From contig CAWETF010000005.1 of assembly GCA_963812045.1 (NCBI GenBank), positions 747,696-811,695 on the forward strand: a DNA stretch of 64,000 nt. The letters run 5' to 3'. Positions 33,001 to 36,000 of this stretch are shown piece after piece; positions within the stretch are counted from its first letter, which is position 1, and each line of letters starts with the position of its first letter. Position numbers: made by a program. This stretch comes from an uncultured delta proteobacterium. GTDB lineage: Bacteria > Desulfobacterota > Syntrophia > Syntrophales > Smithellaceae.

Positions 33001-36000
33001 AATATGATCCGCTGTTTTGTATTTTAAATGAACCTATCCCTATTATTTCCCAATCCTTTATTATCTGGCACAACGTTAGTTCATTCTTTCATGCTATTTT
33101 GCCAGATCTATTAAGTAATTCAAGACGTGCTTCCAACGGTGCTTCTACTTCCTTTAGATGAAACAGGGTGCTTGGACCACCATGAAAAGTCGACGAAATC
33201 TCGAAAAAACCATTCATGGATACTGATATTACACCAGTGCCGCCGGATGAAGAATTGAGAACATGATTTGGTGCAAAATGAAATTTTATATAAAATAGTT
33301 TTCCAAGAGTGTTTAGTAACGGGTATATTTCATTTCCAAACTTGCCTGATGTAAATGGGCTAAGATCAATATTTTCTCTTTTTACAAATGCGATTTGCTT
33401 TTTGGTCGAAACGCTGGCGTCAATAATTGAATCCAGAATCACTATACTTCCGATATTTTTTTCTAAGAAAGAGACTAACTCATCATTATTACCTGACGTA
33501 ATAAGAATTGTGCCAATATATTTTGGCACGTCGTCATACTTTGTTTTGGAAGGGCTCCACGATATGCCGCCGATTGGGGTTGAGAAACCTGTAATTCGGC
33601 GAATCCATCGAAATATATTTTTAATCATAATCGTTCATTCTTTTACATAATAAAGTCTTGTAGGGTGGAACAAGCATAGCGGTTCCACCATTTATTCGAT
33701 CATTCGGTGGATGCGCTTGCGCTTCATCCACCCTACAACTTTTATTTTAATACGTTGTTTTATGATATTGGCTTTCCTATTCTCTTCCACCTGACGTTAT
33801 CTACGTCTTTATCCCAAGACCAATATAAATTAATAACTTTCGCTTTGATTGTGTCTTTTTTCACAATGCCCCAGAACCGGCTATCAAGACTCTCATCACG
33901 GTTGTCACCCATGACAAAGACGGCATTGTTGGGAATAGTTACCGGGCCGAAAAAATCTCTTGGTTGTCGAGCGGCAGGTATCATATGTGGATCTTTATGG
34001 ACTACATACGGTTCAAACAACATTTTGCCATTTAGATAAACCTGCTTTTCTTTAATTTCTATAGTGTCGCCACTGATAGCCACAATTCTTTTGGTAAAGA
34101 CTTTCTTTGGGTCTACGGGATAAGGAAAAATAACTATATCACCACGTTTAGGTGAACTGTGTTGATAAATATTCATATCGACAAGTATGTGATCGCCAAT
34201 CAAAAGAGTTGGTTCCATAGCCCCTGAAGGAATTTTATAAGCCTGGATAAAATCTTGTTTTACTGTCTCTGTAATAATGGGAGTTACTATTCTTCCATTA
34301 ACTTGCCAAATTGCAACAAGAAGAATATAGCCAATTACTGGTTTTATTCTGAGCGTATTTTCTGGATCTCTGGCAATGAGAATGGCATCTATTATAGCAA
34401 ATATATACAAGCCAATAAAAAGAAGAGCAGGAATTATAATGTTGAATGGAGGGATGGGCTTTGTGAGGATAATGAGAGCTACGAGCACTAGTATAAGCCC
34501 ACCGATATAAATAAACACCCCTCGTTTAATTTTGCCGCAGGATATTTGCCCAAGACCAGGCATCAAAATACTGAGAATTGCTGCGCCAATTACGTTAATT
34601 GTTACATTTTTTGCTAATTTGTTTTCATTCATATTATTTTTGCCCAAAATTGTTTATATGGATCGGTGTTAATACTGCAAATGCCGCAATGGTGTCGACA
34701 TAGCACCCCTCAACAACTTTTTACCAATTGAAACTTGAATCTGAAATTTTTTTAAAGATTGAAAATTATAAAAACACACCAGTTAATAATATGTCAATAT
34801 TTTTTCTCTATATCTCAGTAATACAAAGTCATTTGTTTTTTGCCGAATTCACATAGTCGCTGTAACAGAACAAGAGCAGAAGGACTGATTGAATTATCCA
34901 GGTAGGAATCATCTTTTCAATCTTGATCAATCCGCTAGAAACTGCGAACGCTCCTGCCAATATCAACCCGATAAGAACAGGAATCACTGTGATCATAATG
35001 ACTCCTTTTCGCTCAACAGGTTTTCTATCCGCCCAAATAAGCAAAACAGTCCAACCAAGCATTAACGACGCGCCAACCATCATCGCGTATTTATAATCAT
35101 TCCCCGGATTAAAATTATCTATTCCAAACATGACGCCGGCAATTCCAGGGAACAACATCGGAATGACCATTAAGCCGTCAAGCACGGCCCCGAACCAATA
35201 ACTGATGCGCAGAAAAATAACTTTGTTATGCATATAATCCCCTCTTGTATAACGGCTAATGTAGCGGTAAATGGTCGGACTAAATTTTCTATATTTTACG
35301 TTTTGATACCAGTTCAGCAAAATGTTCAAATGAACGATCATATGTTCTTTCCGCATCTTTCGGAAAACAGCAAGCGGGCAGTGCCCTGCTTTTTAAATGA
35401 TATGTTAAACAGTCGCAGCATACGCCTTTCCTGCTGCATGGTTCATAAGTGCAATTACATTTATCGAGGTTTTTCTCTTTTTTACATTCCATTTTGGTAT
35501 TCCTTTATAAAAACTGGATTCCCGATCTGGTCGGAAATGACACTTTATATTTTTTATCTTGACGGCTGGAAAACGCCTTCGCGCACGGAACGAACATCTT
35601 CAACGGTAAAAAACGCCTGAGGATTGTTCGATTGGATTATCTCCAGAACGTGTTCAATGTTTTTTCTTTTAACGATGGTAAAAATAATTTTCACCGGTCC
35701 CTGCGCCCCTTGTGCGTCCATGTGCGTGACGCCGTAGCCTTCGTTCTTGAGAAGGTCAATCAATTCATCCGCGTCCTTTTGTGTTATTATCCTGATAACG
35801 ACCGTGCCAATCGCCATCCTTTCTTCAATTAGAATCCCGATAAAATTACCCATCCCGAAACCGCCGGCATAAGCTACATAATAAATAGGATTAGTAAGAT
35901 TTTTAAAAATCTGAGTGATGGCAAACAGCCAGATAAGAACTTCAAAGAATCCGATAGAAGCGGCCAGAAATTTCAATCCGCGCGAAACGTAGATGATGCG

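Follow-up and report, generated by a model that had tools for sequence, protein, structure and literature searches.

Why should two unrelated accessory genes on one bacterial chromosome be preceded by almost the same stretch of non-coding DNA? The question is raised by 64,000 nt (hereafter the window) of an uncultured delta proteobacterium of the Smithellaceae [assembly GCA_963812045.1, contig CAWETF010000005.1, positions 747,696 to 811,695], in which an AT-rich element occurs once upstream of an extended signal peptidase gene, lepB, and once upstream of an orphan gene for a putative secreted protein. A preliminary description of this DNA took the element for a shared promoter cassette and the two genes for co-regulated or of common mobile origin. 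The explanation we favour, with about even confidence, is that the element is a lineage-restricted, unstructured intergenic module of the Smithella/Syntrophaceae, ~79 bp long and ~80% A+T, whose copies appear to have arisen as non-coding DNA, separately from the neighbouring genes, and which would act as a transcription start module. Active or inert, it provides no link of origin between the signal peptidase and the orphan secreted protein.

Three copies of one element

The two copies in the window are as follows.

34728..34806, minus strand: copy A, a 79-nt core of 19% G+C, 13 nt beyond the point where the block of synteny with relatives stops
42528..42604, minus strand: copy B, a 77-nt core of 21% G+C, within a 2.74-kb insertion between the genes for an MFS transporter and a hydrolase

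They have the same orientation and are ~78% identical across ~75 nt; the stretches first reported, 34731-34812 and 42531-42612, are present and align as then described. Local alignment of the ~95-nt regions of A and B scores 39 against 10.9+/-1.9 for shuffled sequences (z ~15, 0/500), so the similarity is far beyond chance. In a BLAST comparison of the whole window with itself, the A-B pair is the strongest AT-rich repeat, at 59.7 bits against a maximum of 49.7 among 30 locally shuffled windows, and a repeat search returns 34745-34805 and 42543-42603 as a 61-nt, ungapped family of 77% identity. A 36-nt degenerate consensus matches just 34764-34799 and 42562-42597, with 0 matches expected (100 shuffles). 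Extension of the similarity towards 34697/42493 was considered and rejected, not being significant alone (z = 0.0).

A profile built from the two copies finds no third in the 64-kb window, the next match having an E value of ~5. As the C-termini of the MFS homologues vary between lineages, a relative, L084, was examined, in which the MFS protein is 92% identical. Here a third copy, C (L084 5480-5557), begins 24 nt past the MFS stop codon, ends 22 nt short of the start of an amidase gene and occupies most of the 124-nt spacer between these genes, just ahead of the strong ribosome-binding site (RBS) of the amidase. Copies A and C are 79% identical over 77 columns (blastn E = 2e-12) and B and C 71% identical over 107 columns (E = 2e-10), and the profile of A and B, before C had joined it, matches C with an E value of 2.6e-7. 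The start of copy C is also present at a contig end in a second sample, L085. A possible RBS and ATG in common with the amidase start was not significant (z ~0).

Upstream of the core, B and C have a further 23 nt in common (z = 4.8, 0/2000 shuffles) that A lacks:

42612..42633, minus strand: 5' flank of copy B, AAAATGATACTGGTAACAATCT, common to copy C only

Because this flank is common to B and C only, the sequences identify B and C as positional orthologues and A as a 5'-truncated paralogue. No remnant of the amidase gene was found in the window, and lepB, the orphan and the L084 amidase are without mutual similarity. Since copy C precedes the amidase, one module stands before three unrelated genes in two genomes.

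At the sites equivalent to that of copy A in L084 (8285-8311) and in another relative, L082 (~12470-12500), just the first ~17-25 nt of the element (TAGAAAAATATTGACATAATAAC) are found, followed by unrelated sequence; the 17-mer at the L084 site is identical to the start of L084 copy C.

Scans with exact patterns gave 9 matches in genome contigs, 51 in metagenome contigs and 0 and 12 in viral contigs, all attributable to chance and alike only in the bases that the patterns fix, but the patterns would also miss copy C; as this copy fits none of them, the scans are no proof against other members of the family. Searches of plasmids and phages by blastn set for distant similarity returned short matches only (E of at least 0.03).

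Neighbouring genes and the possible mobility of the element

From ~30.4 to 43.8 kb every gene lies on the minus strand. Copy A sits between the stop codon of a 134-aa membrane-protein gene (34829) and the lepB ATG (34632), and copy B between the stop codon of the MFS transporter gene (42702) and the ATG of the orphan (42396). The features downstream are:

33760..34632, minus strand: lepB, S26 signal peptidase I of 290 aa with an N-terminal membrane extension, downstream of copy A
34642..34691, minus strand: resident leader of 50 nt between copy A and the lepB start, outside the repeat; 82% identical to L081 12956-13005 (E = 4e-7)
41932..42396, minus strand: orphan of 154 aa with a signal-peptide-like N-terminus, downstream of copy B

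Both downstream genes are AT-rich and mutually unrelated, and close relatives have neither of them in the syntenic regions. With the element non-coding and in the same orientation before each, the early view that it precedes two unrelated accessory genes is borne out, as is the naming of lepB, a true S26 signal peptidase with a membrane extension. The orphan has a sole match among 5.8 billion protein clusters, namely itself.

The proposal of a common mobile origin for these genes is not supported by comparison with LepB homologues elsewhere. Upstream of five loci encoding homologues 69-88% identical to LepB there is no trace of the element, only the RBS/start region being common, and these loci have zero neighbours in common with lepB. 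The element did not arrive as cargo with the genes, given that the LepB homologues elsewhere lack it and that the resident 50 nt lie between copy A and lepB. Since copy C precedes a third, unrelated gene, the amidase, in another genome, these comparisons assign the element to the Smithella chromosome context and not to the cargo genes.

The extension of the 290-aa signal peptidase comprises ~125 aa, and the extended protein is one of a large family (Desulfobulbaceae, Desulfobacteraceae and other metagenome-assembled genomes), whose members are found in unrelated genomic contexts, in many cases next to toxin-antitoxin or phage-like genes. Because of these unrelated contexts, the extended lepB appears to be a solitary mobile accessory gene.

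The ~50-nt leader (…GATCCATATAAACAATKTTGGGC) recurs in four Smithella-like lineages, namely the window, L081 (12956-13005), L082 (~12575-12628) and L084 (~8510-8545), before a different gene in each: lepB, a 76-aa gene, an HNH gene and a gene of at least 103 aa. Here, too, an upstream region has been retained while its cargo was swapped. The region L082 12436-12628 was tried as a diverged orthologue of copy A and rejected: its core reaches z ~1 in shuffling tests, and it shares with the window just the 50-nt leader and a ~17-25-nt stretch, AAAAATATTGACATA (E = 0.014). Between copy A and the lepB start there is also a 10-codon upstream open reading frame (ORF), MSTPLRHLQY (34671-34703, minus strand), with a strong Shine-Dalgarno sequence, GAGGGG, which is not conserved in the other copies of the element.

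Synteny was compared at the DNA level with relatives whose MFS proteins are 90-94% identical (L078/L079, L081 and L082); the names attached to close MFS homologues assign the window to Smithella/Syntrophaceae. Conserved blocks are broken up by strain-specific insertions, two of which, defined against L078/L079, hold the copies:

30935..34819, minus strand: strain-specific block 1, 3.9 kb, with copy A, lepB, a 179-aa orphan and a 634-aa SPFH/Band-7 protein
39966..42704, minus strand: strain-specific block 2, 2.74 kb, with copy B, the 154-aa orphan, a GNAT protein, a glyoxalase-family protein, ParE with an RHH antitoxin and a 102-aa orphan

In L078/L079 the hydrolase gene follows 7 nt after the MFS gene, where in the window the second block (39966-42704) intervenes. 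The conserved block with the DUF6485 gene and the 134-aa gene stops at 34820, and block 1 starts beyond. PADLOC models of defence systems give 0 matches among the inserted genes.

Each copy lies at the upstream edge of its insertion, and against L081 copy A falls within a discrete extra segment of ~125 nt flanked by conserved sequence. These positions at synteny breakpoints, and an array of small co-directional accessory genes that recalls cassette arrays, speak for a non-autonomous mobile element, similar to a miniature inverted-repeat transposable element (MITE), or a recombination site of the attC or att kind, inserting near genes or capturing them. We regard such an element as very unlikely. 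The ends of A and B have neither terminal inverted repeats nor target-site duplications, the ends of the insertions have neither target-site duplications nor terminal repeats, and there are just two copies in 64 kb. attC sites and MITEs fold, whereas the DNA of the element has less structure than shuffled sequence (z +0.5 to +1.8). An integron attC site was rejected, there being no hairpin and no RYYYAAC or GTTRRRY cores in the element; most junctions of the array have no such site at all, and its other junctions lack the element. Spread by recombination or duplication is likely, and not transposition.

The least probable of the explanations weighed here is that the conserved segment encodes a cis-regulatory RNA leader or a small RNA. 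The ~35 conserved nt downstream of a -10-like box, described below, would indeed be transcribed, but on either strand the RNA folds no better than shuffled sequence (z -0.4 to +1.4), Rfam gives nothing at gathering score, nor at E<=1 over 33000-43900, no terminator accompanies the segment, and none of the short ORFs beginning within the element or past it is conserved from copy to copy. The lack of a fold, an Rfam match, a terminator or a conserved short ORF argues against an RNA element, an attC-like site and a MITE alike.

Two neighbouring palindromic repeats, by contrast, fold very well (z -4.7 and -7.1). The first, of three copies and ~125-130 nt, is GC-rich [36177-36307 (plus strand), 59463-59593 (minus) and 61051-61175 (plus); 81-92% identical], folds as a single long hairpin (DNA minimum free energy -31.3 kcal/mol, z -4.7), has no Rfam match and looks like a MITE or a repetitive extragenic palindromic (REP) sequence. 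Its copy at 36177-36307 lies just past the stop codon of the ECH gene, another synteny breakpoint, before an inserted DUF2179/DUF5698 gene. The second, at 33649-33746 between the lepB stop codon and the next gene, is a REP-like double-hairpin palindrome (GGTGGATG...CATCCACC and GGTGGAAC...GTTCCACC within an outer stem; DNA fold z -7.1) and is probably a terminator or a REP element.

The flanks bear other marks of rearrangement. At the 3' end of the MFS gene (window 42702-42720; homologues P0122-P0151) the last residues and the next gene differ in nearly every close lineage, the C-termini reading …IKTK*, …VKTKARKI*, …VKTR* or …IKTKERNTPVR*, and to judge from these sequences this end is a recurrent rearrangement point. 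In L078 (8428-8503) and L079 (8225-8300) the 3' end of the DUF6485 Cys-rich gene (window 35361..35286) is present a second time, as a 76-nt duplicate that trails the 134-aa gene, which points to insertion of the 134-aa gene itself at that site. Elsewhere, an FMN-reductase-like gene (38479..39129) contains a 33-nt in-frame tandem duplication (38608-38671; 31-nt units, 90% identical), and the Rfam pan motif RF01749 is found at 19368-19442 on the minus strand, its 41.8 bits exceeding the gathering score.

Promoter or relic

A hexamer scan places the promoter-like boxes of the two window copies at:

34792..34797, minus strand: TTGACA (-35-like) of copy A, preceded by an A-tract and invariant in A, B and C
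34765..34770, minus strand: TATAAT (-10-like) of copy A, 21 nt past TTGACA
42590..42595, minus strand: TTGACA of copy B
42563..42568, minus strand: TATAAT of copy B, 21 nt past TTGACA

In copy C the -10-like box is TATCAT, and its distance from TTGACA is again 21 nt, so that this distance is the same in three copies though 1-nt indels exist elsewhere in the alignment. An alternative register, with an 18-nt spacer, is offered by TGTGnTTTTAT (copy A 34768-34778), which is invariant in the three copies. The core lies at -96..-174 before the start codon in A, -132..-208 in B and -23..-100 in C, and the -10-like box is 133 nt from the ATG of lepB and 167 nt from that of the orphan. Earlier reading of the minus strand had given TTGACA, ~20-21 nt and TATAAT, ~100-200 nt before each start codon; both copies agree, with the spacing now exactly 21 nt.

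The reading of these boxes as a promoter stands in part. The hexamers are perfect, but the spacer of sigma-70 promoters is 17+/-1 nt, the 21 nt found in A, B and C exceed the 16-18 nt of that range, and a promoter scan with 16-18-nt spacers does not call the element. Several further points weigh against a promoter. Among strong hexamer pairs in the window, spacers cluster at 17 nt (4 observed, 0.8 expected), one of these pairs being a TTGACA-17-TATACT promoter before the ECH gene that is conserved in the window, L081 and L082. The 18-nt register has TTTTAT as its box, without the critical -11 A. The B-C identity of 71% is about that of four-fold sites in the adjacent MFS gene of the same genome pair (66.9%) and, the divergence being nearly neutral, there is no clear purifying selection. 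A post hoc test found hexamer columns more conserved than others (11/12 against 38/68, p = 0.017), but no significant difference appeared in an independent test with copy C alone (11/12 against 38/46, p = 0.40). Transcription reading through from the upstream genes, which run in the same direction, could express the downstream genes with no promoter needed. Another hexamer pair spaced by 21 nt and conserved in L081 and L082 was set aside; it lies directly against an RBS and has probably arisen by chance.

Much of this would be expected of a neutral relic, that is, three copies left by duplication or recombination in a fast-rearranging accessory region, with hexamers that are incidental to AT-rich DNA and no function. 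Such a relic is a doubtful but serious alternative. It accommodates the near-neutral divergence of B and C, hexamers that are not significantly more conserved than the rest, the non-canonical spacing, a longest identical A-B run of 14 nt, which is about the chance expectation at 78% identity, and a rearrangement hotspot at which the MFS C-terminus and the downstream gene differ from lineage to lineage. It accounts less well for an element kept at the MFS 3' position in two lineages that have diverged by ~33% at neutral sites, still alignable though the surrounding sequence has been replaced, with every copy oriented like its genes and the exact 21-nt distance preserved in three copies despite 1-nt indels elsewhere.

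Perfect hexamers at a fixed, supra-optimal distance in three copies might instead mark a regulated promoter or operator, silent until an activator that twists or bends DNA, by a MerR-like logic, or some other regulator binds the spacer or leader, the downstream genes then being co-regulated. The conserved blocks TGTG, CAATTCTTT and TTTCAGAT outside the hexamers could be read in the same way. MerR-type promoters, however, have 19-20 nt and a dyad operator, against 21 nt and no conserved dyad seen by inspection here, and the TTGA-N7-TCAA of copy B misses CRP/FNR geometry by one and is not preserved in copy A. No regulator gene adjoins copy A or B, and the neighbouring proteins have no MerR or HTH domains. 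The check for transcription-factor motifs proposed at the outset covered sigma-54, CRP/FNR, Fur, IHF, Rex and Bacteroidetes-type promoters by eye, and none fits both copies. Regulation of this kind seems to us quite improbable.

For the transcription start module that we favour, the older location would be the one where B and C sit, directly behind the MFS transporter gene that neighbours fmt, and copy A would be a paralogue placed between the 134-aa membrane-protein gene and the resident leader. The gene behind it varies by copy, being the orphan secreted protein, the amidase or the accessory signal peptidase, and the module would start transcription for whichever of these lies there. The A-tract and perfect TTGACA would recruit the sigma-70 holoenzyme, with initiation either through the TATAAT/TATCAT box (21 nt, non-canonical) or through the invariant TGTGnTTTTAT (18 nt); a weak or conditional promoter would be expected in both registers, and the conserved ~35 nt past the box would form the beginning of the 5' untranslated region. 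In favour count the intergenic position, the orientation shared with the flanking genes in all copies, the A-tract with a perfect TTGACA, the constant 21 nt and the invariant TGTGnTTTTAT in A, B and C, and that terminator prediction finds no intrinsic terminator separating the element from the genes upstream. The lack of structure and of an Rfam match is what promoter DNA would show, and not an RNA or a hairpin site. Promoter activity is plausible.

A more far-reaching version, which we think unlikely, would make landing pads of the resident modules of this Smithella clade (the 79-bp element after the MFS and 134-aa genes and the 50-nt leader before lepB), retained while unrelated foreign genes exchange repeatedly behind them. 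Capture would then be independent of a recombinase, anchored by homology and followed by immediate expression, and the promoter with its 21-nt spacer would keep captured genes silent until a dedicated factor acts.

Should the start module be active, new AT-rich genes in an uncultured syntroph would be reusing a host upstream module and not imported signals, and the copies would form a natural test case of perfect hexamers at 21-nt spacing. Should it be inert, the element merely marks recombination in a hypervariable accessory region.

Comparison with known systems

The element resembles a canonical sigma-70 promoter in its near-consensus -35 and -10 hexamers, its upstream A-tract and its intergenic position facing a gene, and differs from one, in which transcription starts ~7 nt past the -10 box, in the 21-nt spacer of A, B and C. 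Promoters that depend on regulators of the MerR family have a 19-20-nt spacer with a dyad operator, the activator untwisting the DNA, and a MerR-family gene is usually nearby. Consensus hexamers with a supra-optimal spacer, which make an intrinsically poor promoter, are common to these promoters and the element; the latter has 21 nt, no dyad operator and no adjacent MerR-type gene.

MITEs with outward promoters are also known, e.g. Correia/CREE of Neisseria and ERIC of Yersinia (cited in PMC3488235). Like them, the element is short, repeated and intergenic, and able to bring promoter parts to its neighbours. Unlike them, it has no terminal inverted repeats, target duplication or hairpin potential, and its copy number in the available sequence is very low.

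Copied promoter-like regions have already been described in bacteria, and the element is of this known type. Putative mobile promoters (PMPs) are stretches of 50-100 nt with at least 80% identity upstream of non-homologous genes, and for families of 2-3 copies duplication by recombination has been proposed (Matus-Garcia, Nijveen & van Passel, Nucleic Acids Res 2012, PMC3488235). The present family is likewise small, with 2-3 copies, and its downstream coding sequences (lepB, the 154-aa orphan and the L084 amidase) are non-homologous. The best 50-column windows of A-B and A-C, both 41/50, reach 80% over 50 nt, whereas B-C, at 37/50, falls short. The coding sequences upstream of A and B (134-aa membrane protein and MFS transporter) are non-homologous too, and self-BLAST finds no DNA similarity outside the element; B and C, being orthologous positions, share the MFS gene. 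The PMP pipeline searched the 100-nt fragment at -50 to -150 before the start codon (PMC3488235), which the cores of A (-96..-174), B (-132..-208) and C (-23..-100) only partly overlap, those of A and B lying somewhat further from the start codon. A further difference from PMPs is that a second genome has one copy in the orthologous place but before other cargo, which shows that the upstream region was retained during gene replacement and not only propagated.

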